Origin: a virus
Taxonomy: Duplodnaviria; Caudoviricetes
DNA: 64,000 nucleotides
Reading direction: 5' to 3' (one strand)
Virus record (IMG/VR): IMGVR_UViG_3300032295_000548
Coordinates: 32,001-96,000 of that record
Made by a program: the position numbers and the translations under genes. Shown one piece after another: positions 21,424-63,808 of this stretch (position 1 is the stretch's first letter; each line of letters begins with the position of its first letter). The notes under the pieces are model-generated. The model did no database searches and was not told the origin of the DNA. It saw nothing but the letters and a program-made list of their open reading frames with translations.

Positions 21424-22363
21424 TATTGTAGATGTTGCAGACTTAGACTGTATCTATCTCAGTTACGATGAACCGCAGAAAGAAGAATTCTGGCTAAAGA
21501 TTAAGAACATGGTGCCTTGGGCAAAGCGTGTCGATGGCGTCAAGGGTTCAGACGCCGCACACAAAGCCGCAGGTGAAGCAAGCGAGACAGAACGATTTAT
21601 TCTTATTGACGGGGATAACATGCCCGACGAATCTTTCTTCAATATGCAACTCGACTTTACAGGAAAAGATTCTACTTATCAATTGGCACAATTTCGTTGG
21701 AAGGCAGTAAATGCTATCAACGGACTACGTTACGGTAATGGTGGCATGAGTTCTTGGACAAAGAGTTATGTCCGTAACATGCAAACGCACGAAGCACAGA
21801 AAAGCGGCGACAGTTCACGTATTGCTGACTTCTGTTTAGACAGTAAAGACAACTTGTATTGGGCAATGTATGATTGCTATTCAACTACATATCCCAATCA
21901 TACTCCGTTTCAAGCATGGCGTGCAGGTTTTCGTGAGGGTGTCAAGATGGTTCTTGACAAAGGCGAGAAGCCTGATGCTACTGAGTTCAAAGAACGTGTA
22001 GCAAGTCGCAATCTAAATAACTTGACGATTTGGCAAAACGTTGGTGCCGATGTTGAGAACGGCATCTGGGCTATATATGGTGCTCGACTTGGAACATACA
22101 TGACAATGCTTACTGAGTGGGATTGTCATAATGTACAATGGTTTGATAACTATCCTGTACTATGGGAAGAACATGAATTCAGAGATCCAATAGTGCAATC
22201 AGAATTGCTTGGTGAGGCATTACATGACAAGTTGGGATTACCAATGTGTACACTAAGTGCCGAACAGTCAAAGTTCTTCAAACGTCACTATCAGTCTGAC
22301 TATCACAATCAAGGCCCATTAGTTACTGAGATGGAAGTCATTCGTAGAATCGAAGGATGGTAA
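21410..22363 (+). CDS. GT-A-like glycosyltransferase
   Basis: YLSYDEP, RVDGVKGSDAAHKAA, FILIDGD (DxD), AWRAGFREGVK; homologous to the C-terminal domain of the 49013 protein. Confidence 0.6.
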   Translation: MNSSNIVDVADLDCIYLSYDEPQKEEFWLKIKNMVPWAKRVDGVKGSDAAHKAAGEASETERFILIDGDNMPDESFFNMQLDFTGKDSTYQLAQFRWKAVNAINGLRYGNGGMSSWTKSYVRNMQTHEAQKSGDSSRIADFCLDSKDNLYWAMYDCYSTTYPNHTPFQAWRAGFREGVKMVLDKGEKPDATEFKERVASRNLNNLTIWQNVGADVENGIWAIYGARLGTYMTMLTEWDCHNVQWFDNYPVLWEEHEFRDPIVQSELLGEALHDKLGLPMCTLSAEQSKFFKRHYQSDYHNQGPLVTEMEVIRRIEGW

Positions 22364-24998: not shown

Positions 24999-25001
24999 TC
25001 G

Positions 25002-38597: not shown

Positions 38598-41500
38598 ATG
38601 AAAAAAGTAGCAATGATTGGTGTAGGTAAATTGGGTCAAGATTGTGCAGAAGTTATGGCTGATGCAGGCTATGACGTTGTTGGTTATGACGTAGTGCCTA
38701 GGACACCAGCATTTCAAATGCGTAGTACAATAGCTGAAGCAGTTAGTGATAGAGATATCATTTTTATTGCCGCACCTACTCCGCATGATCCTATCTATGG
38801 TGGCGAAACCCCAACAAGCCATCTTCCAAACAAAGACTTTGACTATACGATAGTCACTGATATTTTAAAAGAGGTCAATAGACACGTTAATAGAAGTCAA
38901 TTAGTTGTCCTCATCAGTACAGTGCTACCCGGAACAGTTCGAAACATCCTAGAGCCTTGTATCACTAACGCAAGATTCATTTACAACCCTTACCTTATTG
39001 CTATGGGTACCGTAAAATGGGACATGATAAACCCAGAAATGGTAATTATCGGTACAGACGATGGTAGCCTTACAGGTGATGCTAGTGAATTAATTGACTT
39101 CTATAAAGTGTTTATGCAAAATGAACCACGTTATGAAGTTGGTACATGGGACGAAGCCGAGTCTATCAAAATCTTCTATAACACATTTATCAGTACTAAG
39201 CTTGCACTTGTCAACATGATCCAAGACGTTGCCGAAACTAACGGCAATATCAATGTTGACGTTGTATCTAATGCACTTGCAAAATCTACACATCGCATCA
39301 TGGGTCCTGCTTATATGAAAGCCGGGCTCGGGGATGCAGGAGCCTGTCACCCTAGAGACAATATTGCTCTGCGTTATCTAGCAGAACGTTTGGACTTGGG
39401 TTATGACTTGTTTGATTCAATCATGACCGCACGTGAAGTACAAGCTGAACGTATGGCATTGCGTTGCTTAAAGAATGGTCGTAACGTTACTATTATTGGT
39501 AAAGCGTACAAACCCGCAGTTCCTTATACAAATGGTTCTGCTAGTATGCTTATTGGCTACTACATTGAAAAGCATGGTGGCAACTTAAATTATTATGATC
39601 CTAATACGGATGACCACGATCTGCGTGAAGATTGGACTCATGTTTATCTAATTGGTTATTGGGAGAGTTGGGTCGAGAACATCAAATTTAAAGAGCCGGG
39701 GGTAGTAGTTATCGATCCATGGAGAAAGATAACTACTAACCAACATAGCGGTGAAATTATACATTATGGTGACACACGACTTAAACACAAGTACGAAGTC
39801 CCTGCAACTACTGTTGACACAATGATGCGTCAAGTGTTTGAAATGTTTCCGGACATTCGTCAGTATGAAAATAGTATTCACTTAATTGATGCTACAATCA
39901 ACTTTGAAACAATGTTTGTACGTAGACCAACTGAGGACATTGTTAAAGAAATGCGTGAAGCTAAAAAGAACGGCAAAAGCAAGTTTATATTCTTTGCGGC
40001 TACTGAAGCATTCATGACTCACGTACAAAGCAAGATTCAACGTATTGCTAATATTGTAGATGACATCATACCCGAAGAAGATATTATTGTAATTACCGGT
40101 GTTATAGACGCTGACCAAATATACAATAGATTAATAGATGAAAATGGTTGGAATAAACGTGTTACGTTAATGAATTGCCACTTCTTTAATTACATTACTA
40201 CAACATATGCTCAAGGATATGAGTACATAGGTGGTTATGATATACGTTTCCGTGGCAAAGTATTTACATGTTTCAATAAATTAAATCGTGAACACAGAAT
40301 GGTTCTTATGGAACGTATGTTGCGTGAGCATTTAGTTGACAAAGCTTGGTATAGTTTTGAGGGTGATTTCGACTTTGTAGAAAAGATACCTGGATTAAGT
40401 GATGTGCAATTTCCTTTCATTAAAATGAATGCAGGTCTTTTCCCTATGAGATTGAATATCACAAAAGATAGACATAATCCAGTGGACATACAACCTGATG
40501 ATTTGCAATATTATAAGGACAGTTATTTCAGTCTCATTACAGAGACATTATTCTATGACAAGGCTAAACCAAATCAACATCACAGACCTTTTGTCGAGGA
40601 TAGTTTATTCTTGACAGAAAAGACTTATCGTTGTTTTGCACTATTGCATCCATTTCTATTAATGGCTAGACCATATTGTTTGCGTGAATTACGTAGACAA
40701 GGTTATAAGACATTCAGTCCTTTCATTGATGAATCATATGATAATATAGAGAATGATGACTTGCGTTTTGAAGCTATTGTAAAAGAAACCAAACGTCTAT
40801 GTAACTTGACAGGTAATGATTGGGAAATATGGCAAACAGGAATTAAAGAAATTGTTGAATTCAATCAACAACATTTCCATAGTAATAAAGACTTTGCAAT
40901 AACCAAAGACTATCAATCGTTGTTTAGTAATGTAACAAGTACACCTGTTATTAACAAACCAATTGTTCAAGCACCAGTGGTGCAACCAATAGTTGTTCAG
41001 TCTAGTCCTATCGTAGAAGATTTACCTCCACCAAACTTAGATTTTAATACTGTTAAACCAGTAACTATTCTTGATGAATCTAGACAAGATCAGTTAGATT
41101 GGTCTAAGACAGAACACACATACGAGAACGGATTTGTATTACAATATCCTACACATATGGATGGCGGCGGATATGAGTTAAAAGATGAAATATTTTCATT
41201 GATTGATCGTACAGGTAAAGAACATTATGGTCGTGCATTAGAATGGTGTTCGGGTGTAGGTCCGCTTGGCTATGATTTATTGGATAGAAAGTATGTAGAC
41301 AGTGTTGCTTTTGTTGACTCTCACGGTCCTTCAATCAAAGCATGTCTAGCCAACGCAACATCTAATCGTATGTCAGACCGTGTTTCAGCATATGTATGTG
41401 ACAAGGTTATGCAAATACCGTCACAGGAAAGATTTGATATCGTTGTAGCAAATCCACCGCATAGTGGTGATAGACAAGCGTTTATTGATTCATTGGAACA

Positions 41501-41735
41501 TTTAAACTGTGTAGACAATACTTGCCGTTTAATAGTAGACGAAGGGTATGAAGCACTACAAGATTTCTATGCTAACATCAGAGATTATCTAAACCCCGGC
41601 GCTGATATATACATTACTACTGGTAGTAATCAAGAACATTATATTACATGGGCGGCAAAAGGTGGATTAAGATTTATGGGCTTTAGCCCCATGTCAAACA
41701 ACCCACATTGTGGCATCTATCATTTTAAGGTCTAA
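38598..41735 (+). CDS. Fusion: UDP-glucose/GDP-mannose dehydrogenase + GT10-like domain + class I SAM methyltransferase
   Basis: IGVGKLG, PTP, STVLPGT, KIFYNTF, GACHPRD; middle ITET...LTEK..HPF; P/V/Q linker; C-terminal EWCSGVG and ANPPH. Confidence 0.8.
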   Translation: MKKVAMIGVGKLGQDCAEVMADAGYDVVGYDVVPRTPAFQMRSTIAEAVSDRDIIFIAAPTPHDPIYGGETPTSHLPNKDFDYTIVTDILKEVNRHVNRSQLVVLISTVLPGTVRNILEPCITNARFIYNPYLIAMGTVKWDMINPEMVIIGTDDGSLTGDASELIDFYKVFMQNEPRYEVGTWDEAESIKIFYNTFISTKLALVNMIQDVAETNGNINVDVVSNALAKSTHRIMGPAYMKAGLGDAGACHPRDNIALRYLAERLDLGYDLFDSIMTAREVQAERMALRCLKNGRNVTIIGKAYKPAVPYTNGSASMLIGYYIEKHGGNLNYYDPNTDDHDLREDWTHVYLIGYWESWVENIKFKEPGVVVIDPWRKITTNQHSGEIIHYGDTRLKHKYEVPATTVDTMMRQVFEMFPDIRQYENSIHLIDATINFETMFVRRPTEDIVKEMREAKKNGKSKFIFFAATEAFMTHVQSKIQRIANIVDDIIPEEDIIVITGVIDADQIYNRLIDENGWNKRVTLMNCHFFNYITTTYAQGYEYIGGYDIRFRGKVFTCFNKLNREHRMVLMERMLREHLVDKAWYSFEGDFDFVEKIPGLSDVQFPFIKMNAGLFPMRLNITKDRHNPVDIQPDDLQYYKDSYFSLITETLFYDKAKPNQHHRPFVEDSLFLTEKTYRCFALLHPFLLMARPYCLRELRRQGYKTFSPFIDESYDNIENDDLRFEAIVKETKRLCNLTGNDWEIWQTGIKEIVEFNQQHFHSNKDFAITKDYQSLFSNVTSTPVINKPIVQAPVVQPIVVQSSPIVEDLPPPNLDFNTVKPVTILDESRQDQLDWSKTEHTYENGFVLQYPTHMDGGGYELKDEIFSLIDRTGKEHYGRALEWCSGVGPLGYDLLDRKYVDSVAFVDSHGPSIKACLANATSNRMSDRVSAYVCDKVMQIPSQERFDIVVANPPHSGDRQAFIDSLEHLNCVDNTCRLIVDEGYEALQDFYANIRDYLNPGADIYITTGSNQEHYITWAAKGGLRFMGFSPMSNNPHCGIYHFKV

Positions 41736-49012: not shown

Positions 49013-52000
49013 ATGCTAAGAGATGTTTTTTATTTCGGAAATAAACCTAATGTTCACCCAAGAGAGCAACATGCAACAAGTTTAACAGACGCTAGAAGAA
49101 AAGCGTCAACAGAACATTTTTGGATTATTAACGAGTTCTGCGACTATACTAATTTTGATTGGGATTTTGATTTTGAATTCCTACCAGACGCAGACGTATG
49201 GGCAGAAGAACACAACAACGTATGGCCTAGCTATCATCAAAAGGATAGCGGTACATGGCTATGTCCAAAGAAACTAAGTGACGTTATTGTTTATCGTGCA
49301 GATGTTGATTCACTGAAACGAAAGAATAGCATCAATGACAACTGGAAGTTGTTAGATAATATTGATGTTACTAAGTGGGACTTTAGTTGGCATCCTGATC
49401 CAAGTGACCCTCCCTACATTTATAAGTGGGGTTCAAAGTATGCACCTGTTGAATTAAAATCGTGCATTGAATATCATGCTCCGGACGCTACTCAAATAAA
49501 ATACATGAACACTACAGTAGAATTGCTTCCTAATTGGGATTGCATTGTAGAGGTTCAGAAAGTAAATTACAATCATTGGGATATGAGTTGGAGACCAGAC
49601 CCACTCGATCCTCCCTTCATTTACGTATGGGGTAACAAATACATTGATGGACGTTTACGTTCAACACTAGAGTATCATGTGCCTGGAGCTACTGAAAAGA
49701 AATACATGAATGAGTTAGTACCTGTACTTCCTGAATGGGATCGTTGGGTACTAATACATGACATTGACAAAACATCATTTGACTTCTCTTGGAGACCAGA
49801 TCCAAGAGAGCCTGATTTTATATATGTGTTTGGTAATGAACAATATGAAGGTGGTGTAATGCCTACGATTGAATATCGTATGCCTGATGCTACTGAGAGA
49901 AAATATCTTCATGATATGAAGGCTAGACTTTCTCCTCATCCTGAAAAATTCGAACACTTAGAGAAAGCAGATAATATTGATTACAGTTGGGTTCCAGACC
50001 CAACTGCACCTCCTTATATCTATGTTTGGGGCAATCAATGGAACAAGCCAGAAGATAAGATTAGTATTCAATACGTAGTTGAAGGTGCAACAGAATACAA
50101 ATACATGGAAGAACGTTCAAAACGTAAACCATGCATGGATAATTGGGAAGTACCTGATGATGTTGATACTACTGGATTTGATTTTTCTTGGGAACCTAGT
50201 CCTGCTGATCCTGCATACATCTATGAGTTTGGTACTCAGTGGCAAAAGACAGGTGGACCTCGTTATGTAGTAGAAGGTGCCACAGAAATCAAATATGTAA
50301 GTACAATGAAAGTAACTAAGTTAGCAGACAAATCTAAGTTTGCTATCTTAGGCAATTTAAAAATTGCTAACTTTGATTATTCATGGCATCCTGACAGCAC
50401 AGAAGAACCATACATTTATGTCTTTGGTAATAACTTCTATCCGGGCGAAATTATGCCCACAATTGAATATGCAATGTCAGGCGCTACTAAAATCAAATAT
50501 GTAGAAAACGCAGTTGCAACATTAGGTATTGATAAAATTAATTGGGAAGTACCCAACAATGTTGATGCGTCATCGGTAGATTTTAGTTGGAAGCCTAATC
50601 CTAAAGACCCTCCCTACATCTATCAGTATGGTACACAACATCAAAAATCAGGAGGACCTCGTTACGTAGTTCCTGAGGCAACTGAAGTAAAGTATGTTGA
50701 TGTAAAAGCTAAAGCACTGCCACAACAAGACAAATTTACAGTGTTAGATGGTATCGTAGTTGACGAGTTTGATTACTCATGGCATCCAGATGATACCGAA
50801 GAAGCGTACATCTATCAATTCGGAAATAATCAGTATCCTGCTGAAATTATGCCCACTGTTGAGTATGCAATGCCTGGTGCTACTCAGATCAAATATGTAC
50901 ACGAAGTAGTAGCCAAGCTTGGTGTTGATATGACTAACTGGACAACACCTGATAACATTGATGCTACTGGTTTTGATTATAGTTGGAAGCCAAATCCCAA
51001 AGACCCCGCTTATATCTATGAGTTTGGTACTCAATGGCAAAAGACAGGTGGACCTCGTTACTTAGTAGAGGGCGCTGATGAAGTTAAGTATGTAACTACT
51101 CAAAGTGTTAAGGTTTTACCTACAACAGACAACTGGACTATTCCTACTAATTGCGATGTAACTGGCTTTGACTTTAGCTGGCATCCAGATGCAACTAGCC
51201 CACCGTATATCTATCACTTTGCTACTCAATGGGCATTGACAGGTGGACCTGTATATACAATGGATGGTGCTACTGAAATCAAGTACGTAGAACATCCAAG
51301 TGCAGTTGCACTTCCTAATCGTGATAACTGGGAAATACCCAAACACATAGATAGTGATGCGTTTGACTTCTCATGGCATCCATACGTAGAAGATCAACCT
51401 TACGTTTATATCTTTGGCACACAACATCAAAAGACAGGTGGACCTAAGTACATAACACCCGGTGTAATACCTACAAGCCCAGTCAAATATATTGACACAC
51501 GTATCATACGTGCGATACGTAAACCTAGCAAGAAAAACTTTGCAGTATTAAACAATTACAAAATTAAAGATTTTGATTGGTCATGGCATCCAGACGAAAC
51601 CGACGAGCCATACATCTATGTGTTTGGTAATACTCAGTATCCTGCTGAAATCATGCCGACTATTGAGTACGTAGTTCCTGGAGCAACACAGATTAAGTAT
51701 GTGACTGATGTTGTAGCAACATTAGACATTGACATGGCAAATTGGGAAGTTTCTAACAATACAGATGTAAGTAGTTTTGACTTTAGTTGGAAACCTAACC
51801 CTAAAGACCCACCTTTCATATATCAATTTGGTACTCAACATCAAAAGACAGGTGGACCTCGTTACGTAGTGGCTGATGCAGATGAAGTAAAGTATGTGAC
51901 TACTCAACAAGCAGTAGCACTACCTACTACTGAAAATTGGACTGTGCCCAATTATGTAGACACATCAGGATTCGATTTTAGTTGGCATCCAGATGACACA

Positions 52001-55000
52001 AGCCCTCCATATATCTATCACTTTGCTACTCAGTGGGCACTGACAGGTGGTCCTGTGTATACAGTACAAGGTGCTAATGAAACAAAGTATTTGGAAGAAC
52101 CATGTGCAGTTGCTTTGGAGAATAAAGAAAACTGGGAAATACCTAAAGATATCGATGAAGCTTTATTTGACTTCTCATGGCATCCATACGTGGAAGATCA
52201 GCCTTATGTATATGTGTTTGGTACGCAACATCAAAAGACAGGCGGACCTAAGTACGTAACACCAGGTGTTATCCCTTCAAGCCCAATCAAATACATTGAC
52301 ACACGTATTCTTAAAGCAGTAAAGAAGCCTAGTAAGAAAAACTTTGCAATACTGAATAACTACAAGATTAAAGATTTTGATTGGTCATGGCATCCAGACG
52401 AAACCGACGAGCCATACATCTATGTGTTTGGTAACAATCAATACTCGGCTGAGATTATGCCTACGATTGAGTACGTTGTGCCGGGCGCAAAGCAGATCAA
52501 ATACGTCAGTGATGTTATAGCAACGTTAGATGTTGACATGACTAACTGGGAAATTCCCGATAACATTGATGCTGAAGGCTTTGACTTTAGTTGGAAACCT
52601 AATCCTAAAGACCCGCCTTTCATATATCAATTTGGTACTCAATGGCAAAAGACAGGCGGCCCTCGCTATGTTGTGCCAGGTGCTGACGAAGTAAAGTATG
52701 TAACTACTCAACAAGTTAAATCATTGTCATCAATGACCAATTGGACTATTCCAACGCATATTGATACAACTGGATTTGATTTTAGTTGGCACCCGGATGA
52801 CACAAGCCCTCCTTATATCTATCACTTTGCCACTCAATGGGCACTGACAGGTGGACCTGTATACACTGTTGAGGGTGCAACGGAAACAAAATACTTAGAA
52901 GAACCTAGTGCAATTGCATTAGTAAATAAAGAAAATTGGGAAATACCTTCTGACATTGATGATAGTGAGTTTGATTTTTCTTGGCATCCATATGTAGAAG
53001 ATCAGCCTTATGTGTATGTCTTTGGTACTCAATGGCAAAAGACTGGTGGACCTAAGTACATAACACCTGGTGTTATTCCTTCAAGTCCTATCAAGTATAT
53101 TGATACACGTATTCTTAAGGCTAAGAAATTGGCTAATAAAAAGAACTTTGCCATACTCAATAATTATAAGATTAAAGATTTTGATTGGTCATGGCATCCA
53201 GACGAAACTGATGAGCCATATATCTATGTGTTCGGTAACAATCAATACTCGGCTGAGATTATGCCAACTATTGAATATACAGTTCCGGGTGCAAAACAAA
53301 TCAAGTACGTACATGATGTAGTAGCAACGTTAGATGTTGACATGTCAAATTGGGAAGTGCCTAAGAATGTAGATTCTACTGGATTTGACTTCAGTTGGAA
53401 ACCTAACCCTAAAGATCCTGCATATATCTATGAGTTTGGTACTCAGTGGCAAAAGACAGGTGGCCCTCGCTATGTTGTGCCTGACGCAGAAGAAGTTAAG
53501 TACGTATCTACACAACAAGTCAAAGTACTTGCTAATCATGACAATTGGACTATACCTCCTAACATCGATGTTAGTGATTTTGATTTTAGCTGGCACCCTG
53601 ATGCTACAAGTCCACCATATATCTATCACTTTGCCACTCAGTGGGCATTGAGCGGTGGCCCGATCTACAAGATGGATAAGGCTATTGCTACTAAGTATAT
53701 GGATCAGCCTGTTGCTAAAGCATTGCCTAATAAAACTAATTGGGAGATACCGGATGATATTGATGCAGTAGATTTTGATTTCTCATGGCATCCGTATGTT
53801 GAAGATGATCCGTTTGTTTATCAGTTCGGTACTCAATGGCAAAAGACAGGTGGACCTCGTTATGTCACACCGGGTGCAAAGAGAAGTTTACCAGTCAAGT
53901 ACATTGACACTCGTATTCTTAAATCTAAAAAGTTACCTAACAAAGATAAGTTTACTGTATTAAACAATTTAACAATTGCATCGTTTGATTGGTCATGGCA
54001 TCCAGATGAGACTGACGGTGAATTTGTATATGTGTTTGGCAACACACAGTATCCTGCTGAAGTTATGCCTACGATTGAATATCGTTCAAGTCCCTACGCA
54101 GAAAAGATAAAGTATATCAACGATTTTAAGGCTGTACTAGCAACGGATCTTAAGGATTGGGACATACCTACTAACATTGATGTTAGTGAGTTTGATTTTA
54201 GTTGGAAACCAAATCCAAATGACCCTCCATTCATTTATCAGTTCGGTACTCAATGGCAAAAGACAGGAGGCCCTCGTTATAAAGTAGAAGGCGCAACCGA
54301 AGTCAAATATGTTGAAGGGTCTAAAGCAAAAGCAATTGCTAGTAAAAAACAATGGATAGTACCGACAACTATTGATAGTGCAAACTTTGACTACAGTTGG
54401 CATCCAGACGAAACTGAAGAACTTTACGTTTATCAATTTGGTACTCAATGGCAAAAGACAGGTGGCCCTCGTTATATAACGTCTGGATCAACTAGTGATA
54501 CTCCTGTAAAATACTGTGATGATGTTAAAGCAAGACAATTGCCTAACAAAAAGAATTTTAACTGTTTAGTAGAGCATGAGATAAAAGACTTTGACTATTC
54601 ATGGCATCCAGATGATACTGATAAGCCATACATTTATGTGTTTGGTAATAAACAGTATTCTGCTGAAATTATGCCTACAATAGAATATAAAGTGGCAGGG
54701 GCAGTTCAGGTCAAGTACGTACATGATGTTGTAGCTACACTGAACAACAACAAAAAAAACTGGGAGATACCTAAAGATATCACTACTGAGAGTTTTGACT
54801 TTAGCTGGTTGCCTCACCCTAAGGATCCTCCTTATGTATATCAATTTGGTACACAACATCAAAAGACAGGTGGACCTCGTTATGTAGTTCCTACAGCTAC
54901 TGATATAAAATACATCGATGGCTTGGTTGCTAAACGCAAACAAGCTATGACCAACTGGGTAGTACCTGAAGGAGTTGATGTATCTAATTTTGATTTTAGT

Positions 55001-57154
55001 TGGCATCCTGATGAACTAGCACCACCGTACATTTATCAGTTCGGTACAGTTGCTGACGACAAAGACGGTCCTAAATATGTTCCATCTATCAATAACGGTG
55101 AAGTAGTATTCAAGCAAAGAATAAGCAAACCAATACAAGATGACATAATCGAAGAAGTTTTCATTGGACAATACTATATTGAGACTACACTAGAAGATTT
55201 GGTTAACAAACACCCTGATGAAATTTTCTGGGCATTGAATTCTAGTATTGATTACACAAACTTTGACTTCACTTGGAGGCCTGAGATTATTCATATTGCA
55301 TGGGAATCTTCATACGTTAATGTATTTGGTTCTCCTGACAGTCCATTGACACAAACATACTTTGTCAATGCAAAATCATACTTGGCTGGAAATAAAGACT
55401 TTAAGTTTGTTGAGAACGTAAAATTAAGTGAAGAATACCTATCAACTCTTTTTGTTAAGCCTGACATGTTTTTTGTTGACAGAGGAAACAGTGAATCATC
55501 TGCAAGATTTGAAATGCTGAAAACTAAGTTTGGAAACATTCAAAAGACACGATATCTAAACAGTTGGGTCGATACCATCAACCGTTGTATCAATCGTAGT
55601 ACAACTGAATTATGCTGGATACTGAACAGTGAATTAGATTACTCTGATTTTGACTTTAACTATTATCCTAACCCTTGGCAGATGAAGATGGTTCATGTGT
55701 TTGGTACTCAATGGAGTCATTGGGGAACTACGTTCATGGTTAATCGTGAAGCATTCTCTACTGACACCAAGTACATTAAGATTATAGAACACTTGAGTAA
55801 TCTTAACTTTGTCAAGACTCGTACTGCAAAGGCAACAAATGTCTTGTATGACGTATACTACATAGATCATGGCAACGCTACTAACTTGCCAAACGCAAAT
55901 GTTGTACCATATGATACTGATTATCTAACTACATTTAAGAACATACTATCTAAGTTGCCTGAAAAGAAAGAGCATTACATTTGGATAGCAAGTACAGTGT
56001 GTGATTATGACAGTTTTGATTTCACGTACATTTGTGATCCATTCGCACGTGAACAATTGCATGTGTTCCCAAGTAGCAGTCAGAAGTTTGGTGATACATT
56101 TTTAGTGAATGTGAACAAGTTACGTGAGTTAGTTAGTGATATGGAGTCATTGAAAGACTATGACAAAATTAACTTCAACCAACATCAGCGTACTAAACGT
56201 TTGACCCCTCCTACAATTGTTACAGAGTTTGATTCTCATGTTGCTACTGTAATGCAAGATTTTGATTTCCCCTACGCTGTATTTGTCACTGAGGATAACA
56301 AAGATATAGTTGCAGTTGAAGAAGAACCAATGAGTCTATGGGATCAAGAATCTAAAAACATTCTTGTTACCAGTACTGGTGGCACACGTATCATCGTTCC
56401 AAAAGAAGCAAAGCAATATGTTGAGACACAGTTGTATGACTATCCGTACATCAAAACTGCGCCTCGTTTAGCTAAGAGTAATCCATTAGACATTGTTTAC
56501 TTGAGCAATGGTGAAAGTTGTGCAGATGAAAATTATGAACATCTATTGAAAGCGACAAAGGGTCTTCCTAACAAAATCGTTCGTGTAGATGGTGTTAATG
56601 GTCGTGTTGAAGCATATCATGCCGCGGCAAAAGCAAGTAACACGCCTTGGATGTTCACTGTGTTTGCGAAATTGAAAGTCAACACTAAGTTTGACTTTAA
56701 CTGGCAACCAGATAGACTGCAAATTCCTAAGCACTATATGTTCTTAGCAAAGAACCCTGTCAATGGATTAATTTATGGTCACCAAGGTATGATTGCGTAC
56801 AACAAAGAAATGACATTGAATAATCCAGGTTACGGTCTAGACTTTACATTAGATAGTCCTCACGAAACTATTGAATTGTTATCAGGTATAGCAACATACA
56901 ACACAGACGAATGGTCAACATGGCGTACTGCATTCCGTGAAGTTATCAAGTTGAAGAAAGAAAATTCTGAAATTAGCTTGAAGCGTTTAGAAGCATGGAT
57001 GACTAAAGCTGAAGGTGATTTTGCAGAATATTCGATAGACGGTGCTATAGATGGTATCGCATACTACAATGAAGTAGAAGGCAAAACAGATAAACTACGC
57101 TTGAGTTACGAATGGGCGTGGTTGCGTGAAAGATTTGACAGGAAGCACAAGTGA
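49013..57154 (+). CDS. Giant 2713-aa repeat protein with degenerate GT-A-like terminal domains
   Basis: ~29 repeats of ~65-70 aa (W.IP..ID...FDFSW.P....PYIY.FG.Q...TGGP.Y...GA.E.KY). The C-terminal DIVYLSNGE..RVDGVNG...AYHAAA...TWRTAFREVIK is homologous to 21410. Confidence 0.8.
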   Translation: MLRDVFYFGNKPNVHPREQHATSLTDARRKASTEHFWIINEFCDYTNFDWDFDFEFLPDADVWAEEHNNVWPSYHQKDSGTWLCPKKLSDVIVYRADVDSLKRKNSINDNWKLLDNIDVTKWDFSWHPDPSDPPYIYKWGSKYAPVELKSCIEYHAPDATQIKYMNTTVELLPNWDCIVEVQKVNYNHWDMSWRPDPLDPPFIYVWGNKYIDGRLRSTLEYHVPGATEKKYMNELVPVLPEWDRWVLIHDIDKTSFDFSWRPDPREPDFIYVFGNEQYEGGVMPTIEYRMPDATERKYLHDMKARLSPHPEKFEHLEKADNIDYSWVPDPTAPPYIYVWGNQWNKPEDKISIQYVVEGATEYKYMEERSKRKPCMDNWEVPDDVDTTGFDFSWEPSPADPAYIYEFGTQWQKTGGPRYVVEGATEIKYVSTMKVTKLADKSKFAILGNLKIANFDYSWHPDSTEEPYIYVFGNNFYPGEIMPTIEYAMSGATKIKYVENAVATLGIDKINWEVPNNVDASSVDFSWKPNPKDPPYIYQYGTQHQKSGGPRYVVPEATEVKYVDVKAKALPQQDKFTVLDGIVVDEFDYSWHPDDTEEAYIYQFGNNQYPAEIMPTVEYAMPGATQIKYVHEVVAKLGVDMTNWTTPDNIDATGFDYSWKPNPKDPAYIYEFGTQWQKTGGPRYLVEGADEVKYVTTQSVKVLPTTDNWTIPTNCDVTGFDFSWHPDATSPPYIYHFATQWALTGGPVYTMDGATEIKYVEHPSAVALPNRDNWEIPKHIDSDAFDFSWHPYVEDQPYVYIFGTQHQKTGGPKYITPGVIPTSPVKYIDTRIIRAIRKPSKKNFAVLNNYKIKDFDWSWHPDETDEPYIYVFGNTQYPAEIMPTIEYVVPGATQIKYVTDVVATLDIDMANWEVSNNTDVSSFDFSWKPNPKDPPFIYQFGTQHQKTGGPRYVVADADEVKYVTTQQAVALPTTENWTVPNYVDTSGFDFSWHPDDTSPPYIYHFATQWALTGGPVYTVQGANETKYLEEPCAVALENKENWEIPKDIDEALFDFSWHPYVEDQPYVYVFGTQHQKTGGPKYVTPGVIPSSPIKYIDTRILKAVKKPSKKNFAILNNYKIKDFDWSWHPDETDEPYIYVFGNNQYSAEIMPTIEYVVPGAKQIKYVSDVIATLDVDMTNWEIPDNIDAEGFDFSWKPNPKDPPFIYQFGTQWQKTGGPRYVVPGADEVKYVTTQQVKSLSSMTNWTIPTHIDTTGFDFSWHPDDTSPPYIYHFATQWALTGGPVYTVEGATETKYLEEPSAIALVNKENWEIPSDIDDSEFDFSWHPYVEDQPYVYVFGTQWQKTGGPKYITPGVIPSSPIKYIDTRILKAKKLANKKNFAILNNYKIKDFDWSWHPDETDEPYIYVFGNNQYSAEIMPTIEYTVPGAKQIKYVHDVVATLDVDMSNWEVPKNVDSTGFDFSWKPNPKDPAYIYEFGTQWQKTGGPRYVVPDAEEVKYVSTQQVKVLANHDNWTIPPNIDVSDFDFSWHPDATSPPYIYHFATQWALSGGPIYKMDKAIATKYMDQPVAKALPNKTNWEIPDDIDAVDFDFSWHPYVEDDPFVYQFGTQWQKTGGPRYVTPGAKRSLPVKYIDTRILKSKKLPNKDKFTVLNNLTIASFDWSWHPDETDGEFVYVFGNTQYPAEVMPTIEYRSSPYAEKIKYINDFKAVLATDLKDWDIPTNIDVSEFDFSWKPNPNDPPFIYQFGTQWQKTGGPRYKVEGATEVKYVEGSKAKAIASKKQWIVPTTIDSANFDYSWHPDETEELYVYQFGTQWQKTGGPRYITSGSTSDTPVKYCDDVKARQLPNKKNFNCLVEHEIKDFDYSWHPDDTDKPYIYVFGNKQYSAEIMPTIEYKVAGAVQVKYVHDVVATLNNNKKNWEIPKDITTESFDFSWLPHPKDPPYVYQFGTQHQKTGGPRYVVPTATDIKYIDGLVAKRKQAMTNWVVPEGVDVSNFDFSWHPDELAPPYIYQFGTVADDKDGPKYVPSINNGEVVFKQRISKPIQDDIIEEVFIGQYYIETTLEDLVNKHPDEIFWALNSSIDYTNFDFTWRPEIIHIAWESSYVNVFGSPDSPLTQTYFVNAKSYLAGNKDFKFVENVKLSEEYLSTLFVKPDMFFVDRGNSESSARFEMLKTKFGNIQKTRYLNSWVDTINRCINRSTTELCWILNSELDYSDFDFNYYPNPWQMKMVHVFGTQWSHWGTTFMVNREAFSTDTKYIKIIEHLSNLNFVKTRTAKATNVLYDVYYIDHGNATNLPNANVVPYDTDYLTTFKNILSKLPEKKEHYIWIASTVCDYDSFDFTYICDPFAREQLHVFPSSSQKFGDTFLVNVNKLRELVSDMESLKDYDKINFNQHQRTKRLTPPTIVTEFDSHVATVMQDFDFPYAVFVTEDNKDIVAVEEEPMSLWDQESKNILVTSTGGTRIIVPKEAKQYVETQLYDYPYIKTAPRLAKSNPLDIVYLSNGESCADENYEHLLKATKGLPNKIVRVDGVNGRVEAYHAAAKASNTPWMFTVFAKLKVNTKFDFNWQPDRLQIPKHYMFLAKNPVNGLIYGHQGMIAYNKEMTLNNPGYGLDFTLDSPHETIELLSGIATYNTDEWSTWRTAFREVIKLKKENSEISLKRLEAWMTKAEGDFAEYSIDGAIDGIAYYNEVEGKTDKLRLSYEWAWLRERFDRKHK
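50767..54040 (+). repeat. Higher-order tandem repeat, exact 804-bp (268-aa, 4-module) period
   Basis: The equivalent FD(W/Y)SWHPD-coding sequence occurs at 50767, 51571, 52375, 53179 and 53983. Confidence 0.85.
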
Positions 57155-58206: not shown

Positions 58207-59236
58207 AAATTTAAACTACATTGGTCATAACCAATGGAATGGCCTTAACTTTCAAAATTTTTATGAGAAAGTGATTAACGGCAACTATGACAAAGTAATA
58301 TTATTTTCACAGAATGAGTGGGCACATCACCATCACAATCCTGAATATTTTCCTTTGCTACAAGAGCATATGAAAAGAATAGGTAAGCCCCTACATATCA
58401 TTACTTCGGCACATAAACATTTGTACCCAGTTGAACTAGAAAATACTCAAGTACATTGGTATGATACATATTGGATGTGCAAAACGTATGGACAATTATT
58501 ACACGTTAGTAAAGGTAATAAGATATCAATTGATCCCTACGAAACGGTAGATTACAAATATCATTATCTTTCTATGAACCACAGGCCCCATCTGCATCGT
58601 TGTTTGTTAATTGATTTGTTGGCTAAACACGATTTGATGAAGTATGGTGCTATATCATTACACAATGCACCAGTACCTGAACTGTATCAATGGAAATATT
58701 TTGATTACAAACCACTAATATTAGATCAACAATACTCCACTGAAAAAAATTATAACCTTGTACCTGACCAATATTATGAATCGTTCGTACAACTGATAAG
58801 TGAAGCTTCAGGTGATACTATAATGATGTCTGAAAAAACAGCAATACCGTTATTGTTAGGTAAACCTTTCTTAGTTGCTAGTCAGATGCATTTCCATAAG
58901 TTCTTGAAAGGACTAGGATTTGAGCTATATGATGAAATATTTGACTACAGTTTTGATGACGAACCGAACGAAGAAAAAAGATATGAAATGCTTTTGGAAA
59001 ACTTCAAGAGATTGTGTCAAATACCGTTAAACGAACTAACTCAATTACAACAACGCATAGCTAACAAAGTATTGTTTAATAAGAAACATGCCAAATCATT
59101 GGTATTTGACACTACAACATGCCCAGAACTAGCTATGGAAGTTATCAATTACTACAAAGATACCGGAACTATCATAGACAAGCACTTGATAGATGACTAC
59201 GAAAACTGTATAATGTACAAAGACCATGAGATTTGA
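58196..59236 (+). CDS. GT10-like glycosyltransferase, close paralog of 57151
   Basis: Shares YI.HNQW.G, FY..VI...DK.I.F.QNEW, NHRP.HRC and SEKT..P...KPFLVAS. Likely start is ATG 58196. Confidence 0.55.
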   Translation: MSGKNLNYIGHNQWNGLNFQNFYEKVINGNYDKVILFSQNEWAHHHHNPEYFPLLQEHMKRIGKPLHIITSAHKHLYPVELENTQVHWYDTYWMCKTYGQLLHVSKGNKISIDPYETVDYKYHYLSMNHRPHLHRCLLIDLLAKHDLMKYGAISLHNAPVPELYQWKYFDYKPLILDQQYSTEKNYNLVPDQYYESFVQLISEASGDTIMMSEKTAIPLLLGKPFLVASQMHFHKFLKGLGFELYDEIFDYSFDDEPNEEKRYEMLLENFKRLCQIPLNELTQLQQRIANKVLFNKKHAKSLVFDTTTCPELAMEVINYYKDTGTIIDKHLIDDYENCIMYKDHEI

Positions 59237-59261
59237 CATAAATACTGAAAGGTGATACAAT
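59233..59261 (+). promoter_or_regulatory. sigma70 promoter TTGACA-17-TACAAT
   Basis: Near consensus, 17-bp spacer containing TAAATA. Confidence 0.8.
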
Positions 59262-59268
59262 CATGATT

Positions 59269-59376
59269 ATGAATAAAGTTTTGGCACTAAAAGGATTACT
59301 AGCACTATTGGGCTTATACATAGCCTATAAGTTAGGACTTGAACTTTGGTGTATTGCGTATGGATTGTTAATGTAA
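59269..59376 (+). CDS. 35-aa hydrophobic membrane peptide, probably leaderless (not in ORF track)
   Basis: MNKVLALKGLLALLGLYIAYKLGLELWCIAYGLLM*; ATG 8 nt after the -10 box; the stop overlaps the AAGGAG of the next gene. Confidence 0.55.
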   Translation: MNKVLALKGLLALLGLYIAYKLGLELWCIAYGLLM

Positions 59377-59385
59377 GGAGCGTAT

Positions 59386-59610
59386 ATGAAACGTCTTATT
59401 GGTGCTATTGTTGTTTTGGGTAGTCTTGTTGGTTGTGCAACACCTCAGCAAACTGCCGCACTGACAGGTGCAGTAGTCGGAGCCGCGGTAATGAGTTCAG
59501 TGTACGCACACCCTGCACCTAGACCGTTGCATTGCTACACCACTAGAAGTGTAATTGGATATGATATCTATAACCGTCCGTTGTACCAACATCGTCAGGT
59601 TTGTAGATAA
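59386..59610 (+). CDS. Small lipoprotein
   Basis: AAGGAG RBS; MKR + hydrophobic stretch + LVGC lipobox; glycine-zipper-like GAVVGAA. Confidence 0.7.
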   Translation: MKRLIGAIVVLGSLVGCATPQQTAALTGAVVGAAVMSSVYAHPAPRPLHCYTTRSVIGYDIYNRPLYQHRQVCR

Positions 59611-59615
59611 AAGTT

Positions 59616-59945
59616 AAGACTGTATGAAGTAGACAGAAAAGGATTCAAGACCCGGGGGCAGTTCCCGGCAGGTCCACCAAAAGGAGATATGATGAAGCCA
59701 GCTTATGTGATAGCAGTAGTACTATTAATAGGATTGATTTACTTTCATGTCTATTTTTGATGGGCCTGACATAGATTTCGATTGGGTCAAGAGTATTGAA
59801 ATGGACAGTCCGGCAATGTAGAAGCCGTTAGGATTGGGGTAACCCGGTCGAAGAAGCAAAACAAAGTAAACGCAAACGACTCACAGTTCGCATTAGCTGC
59901 CTAAACTCAGCTTAGGGTAAGACATACCTCGTAACAGAAACTCTA
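59616..59945 (+). ncRNA. ssrA: Circularly permuted (two-piece) tmRNA; acceptor piece ~59616-59679, coding piece 59762-~59945
   Basis: T-arm CCGGG-GGCAGTT-CCCGG followed by CAGGTCC-ACCA (ends 59679). This pairs with downstream GGGCCTG (59762), including a G3:U Ala determinant. TTGGGTC pairs with GATTCAA and ACAGTC with GACTGT. Tag ANDSQFALAA* at 59872-59904. Confidence 0.93.
59689..59760 (+). CDS. 23-aa hydrophobic peptide inside the tmRNA intervening segment
   Basis: AAGGAG at 59681; MMKPAYVIAVVLLIGLIYFHVYF*; the stop ends 1 nt before the tmRNA coding piece. Confidence 0.55.
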   Translation: MMKPAYVIAVVLLIGLIYFHVYF

Positions 59946-59946
59946 G

Positions 59947-59970
59947 AAAGCCCACTTCGGTGGGCTTTTT
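59947..59970 (+). terminator. Intrinsic terminator after the tmRNA
   Basis: AAAGCCCAC-TTCG-GTGGGCTTTTT. Confidence 0.9.
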
Positions 59971-59981
59971 ACCATATAGTA

Positions 59982-60103: not shown

Positions 60104-60985
60104 ATGAAGAAAATCGTAATGGCAACATTATTTATGGCAGCTACAGGTTTAGCTAGTGCTCAAGTATCCCTATCAGGAAAGGTCAGCGAGTTCGTTGATT
60201 CTTCTAAGGTGGCCGGCAACAAAAGCACTCAGTTGGTTACAGCACCAACTAGTAACTTTGCTTTGTCTGTCAATGAAAAATTGGGCGGTGGTCTAACTGC
60301 ACGTGCTGTAGTCGAAACTTCACTAAGTGGTAACACCATTGATGGTGTTGGTACTAAGTTGGGTGATCGTCAAGGTACTGTAGGTCTGTCAAGCAAGCTT
60401 GGTAGCGTTGATCTAGGTCGCAATGTTCATAGCCATTTCTTAGCAATCACAAACAACGATACTTTCAGTACATTGTTTGGTAGTGTTGCAGGTGATGTTC
60501 ACAATCTACGTAATCTACGTTTAGGTGATGCAGTGTTCGTTAACGTAACTCCTGTTAAAAACTTAGCAGTTGCTTATGAGCGTTCACAAGTTGCTGTTGG
60601 CCAAGAGGCTACAGTAGTTGCAGGTTCTACTAAAGTAATGGGTGTGAATGCATCTGTTGCTCGTTTCGAACAAGGTACTGAAAAGAGTACTGTTGTTGGA
60701 TTGAACACAACCATTCTAGGTAACAAGGTTACATATACTCATAGCGATGACCAAGGTCTAGTAAAGAGTAAGGGCGACTTGGTTGGTGTTGCACGTGATT
60801 TTGGTGCTATCACTGCTAAGGCAAGCTATGGTACTACAAACACAGACGTTAAAGCATATGCATTAGGTGCTGATTATAATTTCAGCAAGCGTACTGCATT
60901 GACTGTTGCATATCGCAATGTCAACAAGACAGGTTCAGCACATGACGTTGAACAAGTAGGTGTAGGTTTGACACATCGTTTCTGA
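60104..60985 (+). CDS. Gram-negative outer-membrane porin (betaproteobacterial type)
   Basis: Signal peptide (ASA/QV), E.LGGGL.A...E, DRQ..VGL...GSV.LGR, ADYNFSKRT, C-terminal VGLTHRF. Confidence 0.88.
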   Translation: MKKIVMATLFMAATGLASAQVSLSGKVSEFVDSSKVAGNKSTQLVTAPTSNFALSVNEKLGGGLTARAVVETSLSGNTIDGVGTKLGDRQGTVGLSSKLGSVDLGRNVHSHFLAITNNDTFSTLFGSVAGDVHNLRNLRLGDAVFVNVTPVKNLAVAYERSQVAVGQEATVVAGSTKVMGVNASVARFEQGTEKSTVVGLNTTILGNKVTYTHSDDQGLVKSKGDLVGVARDFGAITAKASYGTTNTDVKAYALGADYNFSKRTALTVAYRNVNKTGSAHDVEQVGVGLTHRF

Positions 60986-61066: not shown

Positions 61067-61321
61067 ATGGATATAAAAACGGCATTAGACGGTAGAGAAG
61101 TTTGTGACAAGTTACATAGTGACTTGAGTAAGCTTCGGTACAACCCTGATTTACATAAGATGTTGAAAAATATCAATAATATGGTCACGGAAGTTTCTAA
61201 ACTTGAAGTTATCTGCCGGCGTACTGTAAGTCAAGTGATACTTGAAAGACCGCTTAAGGAATTAAATGATGCGGTTACACACTTGCAAAAACTAATACTA
61301 GTTGCACAACTAATGGAATAA
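61067..61321 (+). CDS. Hypothetical helical protein, probably leaderless
   Basis: 84 aa, no RBS, ATG at the expected transcription start. Confidence 0.65.
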   Translation: MDIKTALDGREVCDKLHSDLSKLRYNPDLHKMLKNINNMVTEVSKLEVICRRTVSQVILERPLKELNDAVTHLQKLILVAQLME

Positions 61322-61322
61322 C

Positions 61323-61523
61323 ATGAAATTTATTTTAATATCACTGATTCTGTCAAATGGATGGGCTGTTGAATTCGATTCACTGTCTGCCTGTCAGAAT
61401 GCGGTTCGGGAAATCTATGCACAACGGGTCAATCCCCCAGGGCAACGATTGAAAGAACTTGAGCAAACCATCGACCTACAAGTTAAGACTTCCAAAGAAT
61501 ACCTTTGCGTGAAAAAGGGTTGA
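61323..61523 (+). CDS. Hypothetical small protein
   Basis: 66 aa, hydrophobic N-terminus, two Cys. Confidence 0.55.
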   Translation: MKFILISLILSNGWAVEFDSLSACQNAVREIYAQRVNPPGQRLKELEQTIDLQVKTSKEYLCVKKG

Positions 61524-61548
61524 CAATAAATCCAAAGTATAGTATACT
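61520..61548 (+). promoter_or_regulatory. sigma70 promoter TTGACA-17-TATACT
   Basis: Near consensus. Confidence 0.8.
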
Positions 61549-61569
61549 ATGGGTAATAAGGAGTTAGTT

Positions 61570-61980
61570 ATGGAAATCAAAGTCGAAGGTAGTCGCAGGA
61601 ATAAAAAGTTTGTTGAAGCAATGTTGCCTTCGATGATTAGCCAACTGAAACTTGAAAACTGCCGCAAAGGACTGTTGATTCGCATATATGATGAATGCGA
61701 GGACAATCAAGGTGTGACACTAGACCTGACCAAAGCAACGGGTTGCTATCTTGTTGTCATCAAGCCTACTAGATACCTCAAAGATATCGGTATGACCCTT
61801 GCACATGAATTGGTGCATGTCAAACAAATGGCAAAGGGCATACTAAAGTCTACAAAAAATGGTGCTCAGATTTGGGCTGGCAAAAAGTACTCAAAACGTA
61901 CTAAGTATCTTGATCGACCCTGGGAAATTGAAGCATTTTCCAAGCAAGAACTAATTCTCCGTCGTGCGTTTGAGGATTAA
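61570..61980 (+). CDS. HExxH zinc metallopeptidase-like protein
   Basis: TLAHELVHVKQ...RPWEIEA. Start moved to ATG 61570 (AAGGAG RBS; ATG 61549 abuts the -10 box). Confidence 0.7.
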   Translation: MEIKVEGSRRNKKFVEAMLPSMISQLKLENCRKGLLIRIYDECEDNQGVTLDLTKATGCYLVVIKPTRYLKDIGMTLAHELVHVKQMAKGILKSTKNGAQIWAGKKYSKRTKYLDRPWEIEAFSKQELILRRAFED

Positions 61981-61985
61981 AAAGG

Positions 61986-62014
61986 TTGACGATAAATGGA
62001 TTTGGGTATATAAT
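61986..62014 (+). promoter_or_regulatory. sigma70 promoter TTGACG-17-TATAAT
   Basis: Near consensus. Confidence 0.8.
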
Positions 62015-62046
62015 CATTACATAGACAGTTAACTAAAGGACTCGAA

Positions 62047-62319
62047 ATGTCAGCACTCACAGAATACACCCTGGAAATCTACAAATCAGACAAGCGTACC
62101 AAAGAAGGTAAACGATTGATTGCCAAGCAAGATTTTGCTCCTAGTACTAAAGACTACATTAATGCTGTTGTCGAAGGTAAGCGTCGGTTGGGCTTGATTG
62201 TTGAAGTTTTTGAGACTTATGTTACCCGTAAAAACTCAATGTCAGGTCGTGACTTCCAAGAGCGTTACGACACCCCTTATTTCTGTTCTCCTTCTAGCGA
62301 ATCGTATTGGAGCATGTAA
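62047..62319 (+). CDS. Hypothetical phage protein
   Basis: 90 aa, AAGGA RBS, C-terminal DTPYFCSPSSESYWSM. Confidence 0.7.
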   Translation: MSALTEYTLEIYKSDKRTKEGKRLIAKQDFAPSTKDYINAVVEGKRRLGLIVEVFETYVTRKNSMSGRDFQERYDTPYFCSPSSESYWSM

Positions 62320-62321
62320 TC

Positions 62322-62630
62322 ATGGCACTCACACCATTGACCGAACGCCAAAAGGCATTGATTGTTTCTAACCTTGTTAAGGCATGTCGCAATATTGACA
62401 ACCTGAACAAGACTGGTTACAAGTACATCAATCTTTGCAGTGGTTTCATTGCACACTATGACCTGTATGGTTTCATTTCAGCATACAGTGAACCTAATTC
62501 TCTCAAGCGTGATATCATCTCCTATGCTGGTCAGAATCAATGGCGCAACTTTCGCCCAGGCGAATGTGACTACGACTATTACATGAGCAAGGCTGATGTG
62601 TACAATCGTATTGTTGCCCAAATCATCTAA
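62322..62630 (+). CDS. Hypothetical phage protein
   Basis: GGAG RBS before ATG 62322; ~102 aa. Confidence 0.65.
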   Translation: MALTPLTERQKALIVSNLVKACRNIDNLNKTGYKYINLCSGFIAHYDLYGFISAYSEPNSLKRDIISYAGQNQWRNFRPGECDYDYYMSKADVYNRIVAQII

Positions 62631-62636
62631 ATAAAT

Positions 62637-62665
62637 TTGACGGTAATTCAAATCTCTGTTAAACT
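62637..62665 (+). promoter_or_regulatory. sigma70 promoter TTGACG-17-TAAACT (extended -10 TG)
   Basis: Correct spacing, upstream of the ATPase. Confidence 0.65.
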
Positions 62666-62707
62666 ACAGTTTCTTTCTTTTAACACACTTTCTTTATAGG
62701 ATAACAC

Positions 62708-63808
62708 ATGTCTAAAGTTTCTGACAATCTCACAATCACTAGCGTTCAAGCCCGCAAGGCTGTTCTCAAAGCTTTTCAAGCAAAGCGCCCTGTTTTCTTG
62801 TGGGGCCCTCCCGGCATCGGCAAGTCTGAGGTTGTTCAAGAAATTTCCGATGAACTCGGTGGTTTCGTTATTGACTTGCGTATGGCGCAAATGGAGCCTA
62901 CTGATATTCGAGGCATCCCTTACTTCAACAAAGATATCAACAAGATGGATTGGGCCGCACCCGTCGATTTGCCCGATGAAGAATTCGCAAGTCAATACCC
63001 CGTTGTTGTTCTGTTCCTCGATGAAATGAACTCTGCACCTCCTGCTGTGCAAGCGGCTGGTTATCAACTTATTCTGAACCGTCGTGTAGGTAAGTATAAA
63101 CTCCCTGACAATGTTGTTATCGTTGCGGCAGGTAACCGTGATAGTGACAAAGGTGTGACATATCGCATGCCAATGCCCCTCGCTAATCGTTTCTTGCACT
63201 TGGAAATGCGAGCCGACTTTACTGCATGGCAGAACTGGGCTGTTGACAAAGGCATTCATAAGGACGTGGTTGGTTATTTGTCTTTTGCAAAACAAGACTT
63301 GTACGAATTTGATTCTAAGTCTGCATCACGTGCGTTTGCTACTCCTCGCTCTTGGGTATTCGTGTCTGACTTGTTGAAAGACGAGGACGTTGACACTGAC
63401 ACATTGTTCAACTTGGTTGCAGGTGCTGTTGGTGAAGGTCTTGCTGTTAAGTTTATGGCCCACCGCAAAGTTGCAGGTCGTATGCCAGAACCCTCTGACA
63501 TTCTTTCTGGTAAGGTCAAGGACCTCTCTGTCAAAGAAATCTCGGCTATGTACTCACTGACTGTTTCTATGTGCTACGAATTGCGTGATGCACTTGAGAA
63601 CAAGAAGGTGAACAACAAAGAATTTCATGAAATGGCAAAGAACTTCTTTGAGTACATCATGAAGAACTTTGAAACTGAATTGGTAGTTATGGGTGCTAAG
63701 ATTGCACTCAAGACTTACAAACTTCCAATCGAACCCAGCTTGCTTGGTACTTCGTTTGACGAATTTCACAAGAAGTACGGTAAGTACATTGTGGAAGCTG
63801 GCAACTGA
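62708..63808 (+). CDS. MoxR-like AAA+ ATPase
   Basis: Walker A GPPGIGKS, Walker B LFLDE, AAGN sensor 1, LANRF Arg finger, TPRSW. Confidence 0.88.
   Translation: MSKVSDNLTITSVQARKAVLKAFQAKRPVFLWGPPGIGKSEVVQEISDELGGFVIDLRMAQMEPTDIRGIPYFNKDINKMDWAAPVDLPDEEFASQYPVVVLFLDEMNSAPPAVQAAGYQLILNRRVGKYKLPDNVVIVAAGNRDSDKGVTYRMPMPLANRFLHLEMRADFTAWQNWAVDKGIHKDVVGYLSFAKQDLYEFDSKSASRAFATPRSWVFVSDLLKDEDVDTDTLFNLVAGAVGEGLAVKFMAHRKVAGRMPEPSDILSGKVKDLSVKEISAMYSLTVSMCYELRDALENKKVNNKEFHEMAKNFFEYIMKNFETELVVMGAKIALKTYKLPIEPSLLGTSFDEFHKKYGKYIVEAGN

Follow-up and report, generated by a model that had tools for sequence, protein, structure and literature searches.

The segment that separates the two pieces of a circularly permuted tmRNA gene in the window (the whole 64,000-nucleotide stretch of phage DNA analyzed here) probably carries a gene of its own, coding for a membrane micropeptide. 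The explanation that we favor, with good confidence, is that this spacer is an exchangeable slot for small genes, that one strand of the stem closing the spacer serves as ribosome-binding site (RBS), and that the tmRNA precursor is the messenger. Sequence comparisons indicate that the spacer ORF of the window is a real, selected gene and not an accident of T-rich DNA. It is probably translated as a micropeptide, and the spacer of a stable RNA very probably works here also as a messenger.

The window comes from a large freshwater phage and is part of an IMG/VR record of 139 kb, with an estimated completeness of ~40%. The single-strand gene layout, the presence of giant ORFs and a GC content of 38% assign it to a jumbo phage. 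Two of these ORFs are found at positions 1–16122 (>5373 codons, open at the window start) and 49013–57154 (2713 codons). The tmRNA gene matches the full Rfam model RF04321 (tmRNA_permuted; model positions 1–213) at 59618–59904 of the + strand with 104.3 bits, for a cut-off of 47 bits, and the model RF01849 with 55.1 bits, for a cut-off of 50 bits. The two-piece gene order can be read in the sequence: the 3′ strand of the acceptor stem and CCA come first, followed by the spacer and by the 5′ acceptor strand. The acceptor piece (59618–59679, + strand, delimited by the RF04321 alignment) is composed of a 5′ pairing region, the T-arm, the 3′ acceptor strand (CAGGTCC-ACCA, last base 59679) and the encoded CCA (59677–59679). 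The coding piece (59762–59946, + strand, from sequence and Rfam) begins with the 5′ acceptor strand (GGGCCTG, 59762–59768) and continues with the tag frame and a 3′ tail. The acceptor stem, read from the sequence and folded, has the G3:U70 alanine identity pair. The tag frame (59872–59904) codes for ANDSQFALAA followed by a stop, with an alanine resume codon and an ALAA-type end, and it is kept with synonymous changes among clade members. The window tmRNA gene is an intact, circularly permuted two-piece gene whose position in the genome is conserved within its own lineage. ARAGORN detected no tmRNA in the window despite the 104-bit Rfam match, and censuses of phage tmRNAs based only on this program would miss the lineage. 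No GenBank phage match to the tmRNA region was found by blastn, and no SmpB gene was found in the 139-kb partial record.

The spacer is 82 nt long (59680–59761, + strand; defined from the sequence and Rfam) and is absent from the mature tmRNA. Its Shine-Dalgarno (SD) sequence AAGGAG (59681–59686, + strand; sequence and folding) doubles as the 5′ strand of the stem that closes the spacer. The micropeptide ORF (59689–59760, + strand) comes next; it has 23 codons from the first ATG and encodes one hydrophobic helix, an assignment based on the ORF list, on hydrophobicity and on a homologous contig (L160; see below). ATG codons are found at 59689 and 59692. The second one lies 5 nt after AAGGAG, which is the better spacing, and the product has therefore probably 22 residues. 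The stop codon TGA (59758–59760) is inside a conserved TGAT leader and ends 1 nt ahead of the first tmRNA nucleotide, G1 (59762). The best 15-residue Kyte-Doolittle mean of the peptide is 2.76, a strongly hydrophobic value. A preliminary description of this DNA had proposed the same spacer boundaries, the AAGGAG followed by a hydrophobic ORF with a well-spaced second ATG, and a single transmembrane-like helix; all were reproduced here. SD motifs of this class precede 15 of the 36 gene starts of the window, against 4.4% of random 12-nt windows, which indicates that SD sites are used by this phage. The peptide matched no Pfam family at E up to 0.01, a search of low power for 23 residues, and no PHROG. 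A homing-endonuclease or other mobility gene was considered and rejected, the product being a 23-residue hydrophobic peptide with no nuclease domain (no Pfam match).

A fortuitous origin of the ORF has to be weighed, in which AAGGAG only supplies the purines of a structural stem and a T-rich stretch reads as hydrophobic by accident. The spacer is AT-rich and T-rich, and a stem formed with the U-rich RNase P leader calls for a 5′ strand rich in purines. We nevertheless regard this origin as very unlikely. The T enrichment of the ORF is confined to codon position 2 (61%, compared to 30% at positions 1 and 3), and only 0.1% of mononucleotide shuffles of its own T-rich composition were both open and equally hydrophobic. 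Among the open 23-codon stretches of the window + strand, equally hydrophobic ones amount to only 0.08%. A degenerate back-translated pattern of the peptide returned one other contig, the phage contig L160. Its 82-nt spacer differs from that of the window at three sites (59709, 59727 and 59742), all of them third codon positions with synonymous changes; the probability that three random substitutions in the ORF are all silent is ~0.01. The flanking tmRNA parts of L160 have diverged from those of the window at least as much, with paired changes in the T-arm, and the DNA upstream of its tmRNA is unrelated to that of the window. This test alone is weak to modest because there is a single homolog with only three substitutions. 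Two of them are moreover transitions that keep base pairs of a hairpin predicted inside the spacer, which would also fit an accidental ORF.

Further evidence against an accident comes from related tmRNA genes. Exact-pattern scans with 31–39 nt of T-arm/acceptor sequence over viral and metagenome contigs yielded ~40 freshwater and marine contigs (11 viral contigs with the exact 39-nt arm and 31 metagenome contigs with the exact 31-nt arm). The comparison covered 25 complete and distinct spacers, window included, that all follow an identical arm of 31 nt. An SD-like motif (xAAGGAx or similar) is present in the first 12 nt of 12 of them, and all 12 have an ORF. These ORFs have 23–122 codons and start 3–6 nt past the motif, or after a mini-ORF in L136 and L158. 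The 13 remaining spacers have no SD motif, with heads such as TAAGCACA or TAAACATA, and none has a convincing ORF; one of them shows a doubtful GTG frame with a poor spacing of 13 nt. When the spacers are collapsed by hand to ~8 coding and 11 non-coding families, the association between SD head and ORF has a P of ~1e-5 (Fisher’s exact test). SD-led ORFs that span 60% or more of the spacer were also counted, taking dinucleotide shuffles as expectation. They were found in 9 of 21 spacers of the focal clade (0.66 expected) and in 11 of 22 other AT-rich phage-type spacers (0.65 expected), an enrichment of more than 10-fold, compared to 0 of 21 GC-rich host-type spacers (0.89 expected). In three pairs of sister spacer ORFs dN/dS is 0.19, 0.23 and 0.17, with a third-position bias. 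This purifying selection is the outcome of the check that the preliminary description had called for on homologous spacers. Together with the all-synonymous L160 homolog, the SD–ORF link in the clade and the codon periodicity, it supports the proposed gene and strongly disfavors the T-rich chance ORF against which the description had itself cautioned.

The possibility that ORF-bearing tmRNAs are decaying genes was rejected. Their Rfam scores are mostly 92–113 bits, equal to or above those of ORF-less genes (81 bits for L159), and their tags are kept, and we therefore conclude that the RNA gene is not decaying. Two spacer types deserve a separate description. The 101- and 122-codon ORFs of L136/L007 and L158 lie directly behind the mini-ORF TTG AAT AAA TAC TAG, whose four codons follow the SD within the first 26 nt of the spacer and whose stop abuts the ATG. 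This arrangement looks like termination-reinitiation coupling. The two ORFs have only their first six residues in common. On its reverse strand, contig L146 (Ga0007792_10034820) carries both the acceptor piece and a membrane-peptide ORF of 42 codons, which has the SD head typical of these spacers and a TTATGAT tail. The tmRNA coding piece is absent within 400 nt after the acceptor arm and ORF, and L146 is possibly a rearranged or half tmRNA gene.

The proteins encoded in such spacers are diverse. Our sample contains ~19 ORF families, eight of them with a membrane-helix-like stretch, the window peptide being the most hydrophobic of these; the others code for soluble proteins of 30–122 residues. 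Three families are also known as free-standing genes or by a Pfam match (L154/L157, L078 and L034). The L154/L157 cargo is a 41-residue membrane peptide whose homologs, with a conserved YDW motif, are free-standing genes in L159 (7579–7731), L155 (2510–2764) and L149 (9675–9839, minus strand). In L159 the gene directly precedes an ORF-less tmRNA, and only a few tens of nucleotides separate its end from the promoter of that tmRNA. The window peptide has a hydrophobic core similar to that of the L154/L159 family (35% identity over ~19 residues), an alignment too short for us to claim homology. The 62-residue ORF of the L078 spacer has a homolog with 70% identity in the cultured phage Melnitz, gene 85, which adjoins the Melnitz ssrA gene directly upstream. 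The L034 ORF belongs to Pfam DUF6356 (E 5e-12). Most other spacer ORFs have no Pfam or PHROG match, and the 65-residue ORF of L108 has no GenBank phage match by tblastn. Melnitz itself (L161, MZ577097) has a tmRNA spacer at 1787–1968 with a frame of 54 codons headed by GGAG, 6 nt and ATG. The last ~15 codons of this ORF lie within the mature coding piece, and the GenBank annotation does not include it. These comparisons suggest that the spacer is very probably a swappable slot for small genes in this lineage of AT-rich aquatic phages. A generic slot fits better than a dedicated toxin or sensor because the cargo is diverse and several of its members have free-standing homologs.

The two ends of the spacer pair with each other. 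In RNAfold predictions the 3′ strand of the closing stem (59745–59761, + strand) is the partner of CCA and spacer positions 1–13. The pairing is found in the excised spacer and in a minimal construct, and in the precursor of 359 nt it prolongs the acceptor stem. Folding of this precursor leaves neither AAGGAG nor the two AUGs single-stranded, and the codon of His-20 (CAT, 59746–59748) is the complement of the first ATG. The burial of SD and start codon by an extended acceptor stem, as previously proposed, was thus reproduced; the idea that this stem evolved as a device for the peptide was not upheld. Stem positions 2–10 are paired in 22–25 of the 25 spacer variants, in a fixed register and with 3–5 pair types per position. 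The stem covaries and is equally kept in coding and non-coding spacers, the latter forming it without GGAG, a further argument against AAGGAG being explained by the structure. Because it is present with or without an ORF, the closing stem is part of the tmRNA precursor and not a toxin switch. In the coding variants, the sequences indicate that its purine strand doubles as the RBS.

The existence of such a switch was the central proposal of the preliminary description: a dual-function RNA whose stem gates a type-I-toxin-like membrane poison and reports the status of RNase P, tRNA processing or translation. Several features agree with it. The peptide is short and very hydrophobic, eight of the ~19 ORF families are membrane-like, translation and maturation would compete on one molecule, the stop being 1 nt from the RNase P site, and the fold-back of the 5′ on the 3′ end that buries SD and AUG resembles the fold-back inhibition of hok-type toxin mRNAs. 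We consider the switch unlikely all the same. Beyond the equal conservation of the stem in the 13 non-coding spacers, the cargo is heterogeneous, with soluble proteins and a DUF6356 member, and homologs of spacer peptides occur as ordinary free-standing genes without such a stem. The peptide has no match in Pfam, where the main type I toxin families are included. No antisense promoter overlapping the ORF was seen: a consensus scan of the minus strand gave no promoter-like site in or beside 59680–59761, although such a scan is weak for excluding one. Of the earlier proposal, the part that stands is the competition between translation and processing, which the position of the stop codon next to the RNase P site would impose; the part that does not is a stem dedicated to the peptide.

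Accessibility of the RBS was assessed from the predicted cost of opening 59681–59694. In the nascent transcript ending before 59755 this cost is 2.5–3 kcal/mol, and it rises to 11–13 kcal/mol when transcription has completed the acceptor 5′ strand (to 59768). It is 12.8 kcal/mol in the precursor, compared to 7.6 kcal/mol in the excised spacer, while the RBSs of neighboring genes require 3.7–5.3 kcal/mol. Eight other coding spacers show the same predicted trend. Taken by itself, the fold of the spacer has no unusual stability (z = −1.3). The strong burial predicted for the finished precursor could mean that this molecule is translated little or not at all.

The tmRNA appears to belong to a longer transcription unit. 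Two sigma-70-like promoter matches (11/12 each) were found by promoter scan on the + strand at 59186–59214 and 59233–59261 and are the likely source of a read-through transcript into the tmRNA. Directly ahead of the window tmRNA there is only a weak promoter match, where L160 has TTGACA-17-TATAAT; L159 likewise has a consensus promoter directly before its tmRNA. Downstream of the two promoters are a gene for a hydrophobic protein of 37 codons (59263–59376, + strand, from the ORF list) and a 74-codon lipoprotein-like gene (59386–59610, + strand) with a signal peptide, an LVGC lipobox and its own TAAGGAG, which ends 8 nt before the tmRNA. Neither product has a Pfam or PHROG match. Both genes probably share a transcript with the tmRNA. 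The unit is closed by an intrinsic-terminator-like hairpin (59947–59971, + strand) with a 9-bp stem, a TTCG loop and a T run, which was read and folded from the sequence and is not listed by the signal scan of the window.

These features fit a mechanism in which the tmRNA precursor is the messenger itself, made here probably by read-through from the 59186 and 59233 promoters. The RBS would be open in the nascent RNA and would shut once the 3′ strand of the stem and the acceptor 5′ strand have been transcribed. Translation would then be confined to a short co-transcriptional window or to molecules that ribosomes hold open. The stop codon is often supplied by the conserved TGAT leader before the tmRNA 5′ end. 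Since the stop is 1 nt before the RNase P site, the presence of a ribosome on the ORF and the formation and cleavage of the acceptor stem should be mutually exclusive on each molecule. A ribosome at the stop would cover the first bases of the coding piece, so that acceptor-stem formation and RNase P cleavage would wait; after termination the stem would close and the RNA be processed.

The messenger could instead be the excised spacer. Slight 3′ trimming would convert it into a non-stop mRNA and its product would be tagged by the tmRNA itself. The case for this is one of geometry, TGA lying at 59758–59760 and G1 at 59762. The same TGA stop is found in at least five independent families (window, L108/L088, L144/L149, L154 and L158), and the RBS is predicted to be less buried after excision, by the costs given above. 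However, the maturation of the acceptor 3′ end presumably strips the SD-bearing 5′ end of the spacer, as in the processing of tRNAs with an encoded CCA, and the geometry is not universal, the ORFs of L132, L134, L111 and Melnitz stopping earlier or entering the mature tmRNA. We find it quite improbable that the excised form is the messenger. A further reading, also doubtful but slightly less so, is that the spacer couples translation to processing by design and acts, during infection, as a self-referential sensor of the capacity for translation or rescue; the excised, near-non-stop mRNA could be tagged by the phage tmRNA. Because the RBS takes part in the processing stem as its 5′ strand and the stop directly adjoins the RNase P site, each precursor would be translated about once before folding and cleavage. 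If this were true, the amount of peptide would depend on how much tmRNA is made and on whether free ribosomes or tRNA-processing enzymes prevail.

Translation of the precursor from an exchangeable slot, the reading that we prefer, has partial parallels. The intervening sequences of Leptospira 23S rRNA carry a conserved ORF in a spacer of a stable RNA that is excised by RNase III without religation. They are alike in having an ORF-bearing excised spacer and differ in the RNA, the bacterial host and the use of RNase III; we know of no built-in RBS in the closing stem of those spacers. The hok/sok-type toxin mRNAs and SgrS/SgrT combine a tiny hydrophobic peptide, an RBS hidden by long-range pairing and a dual-function RNA. 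For the window, the consensus scan showed no antisense promoter and the peptide has no family match, and the stem pre-exists in non-coding spacers. Two-piece tmRNAs of aquatic myophages are known from the OM43 phage Melnitz and from pelagimyophages (PMC9004378). Like the window, these AT-rich aquatic phages have an alpha-type permuted tmRNA scoring above the RF04321 and RF01849 cut-offs, but the window phage belongs to a different, jumbo lineage. The Melnitz paper covers the tmRNA and its glutamine riboswitch and not a spacer gene (PMC9004378). The permuted genes of the 2025 tmRNA database have the same form as the window (acceptor piece, CCA, intervening sequence, coding piece), and a tRNA-Ala gene and a repetitive element are noted in intervening sequences; the terms “ORF” and “open reading” are absent from that paper and protein-coding spacers are not described (PMC11915505). 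It does report that the tmRNA T-loop can hold group I introns, some of them encoding LAGLIDADG homing endonucleases; these resemble the window in having a protein gene within a segment removed from the mature tmRNA (PMC11915505). Those introns are self-splicing, their exons are religated and their cargo is a mobility enzyme, whereas the spacers of the window and its clade lie between two pieces that undergo end-processing and carry diverse small accessory genes. A small-proteome paper on Sinorhizobium concerns the tmRNA tag frame and not the spacer. Text searches of the literature found no paper on genes in tmRNA spacers, and the earlier statement that no equivalent had been described stands within the literature searched. 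Permuted tmRNAs and genes nested in excised RNA segments are already known; the habit of placing genes in tmRNA spacers, which seems widespread among AT-rich aquatic phages and of which the window is one case, is apparently undescribed.

tmRNA spacers are seen as disposable and are skipped by gene callers and tmRNA annotators alike. If their ORFs are translated, the precursor of a stable RNA doubles as an mRNA, and abundant aquatic phages hold a hidden pool of micropeptides, many of them membrane-directed. The fixed frame of RBS and stop codon would then be a natural cassette system by which phages swap small genes. How ribosomes and RNase P compete for a single RNA could also be studied in this simple arrangement, with the cultured phage Melnitz as an available entry point.

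The surroundings of the tmRNA bear on the role of the peptide. Directly downstream is a complete gene for a Gram-negative porin (60104–60985; Pfam Porin_4, E 2e-18), and L144 has a 61% identical copy at the same place. The nearest bacterial relatives of the window porin are found in Betaproteobacteria, at only 26–27% identity, a weak hint of a betaproteobacterial host. The 37-codon protein, the lipoprotein, the spacer peptide and the porin look like an envelope-directed gene cluster. Since its neighbors code for a small membrane protein, a lipoprotein and a porin, our best guess is that the peptide has an envelope-directed accessory role, for example in exclusion or membrane modulation. Further downstream, 61067–63808 encodes proteins of 84 and 143 codons and a MoxR-like AAA ATPase. 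These genes are syntenic among several contigs (L144, L134, L108, L152 and L156; 43–91% identity) and the upstream genes are not, which places the tmRNA at a boundary between conserved and variable DNA. Elsewhere in the window, three tandem paralogous genes with radical-SAM domains are found at 22357–26273 (PHROG 14086, E 4e-12 to 4e-15), and 38598–41735 encodes a protein of 1045 codons in which a UDP-glucose dehydrogenase (PHROG 9148, E 4e-96) makes up the first 350 residues and is fused to additional domains.
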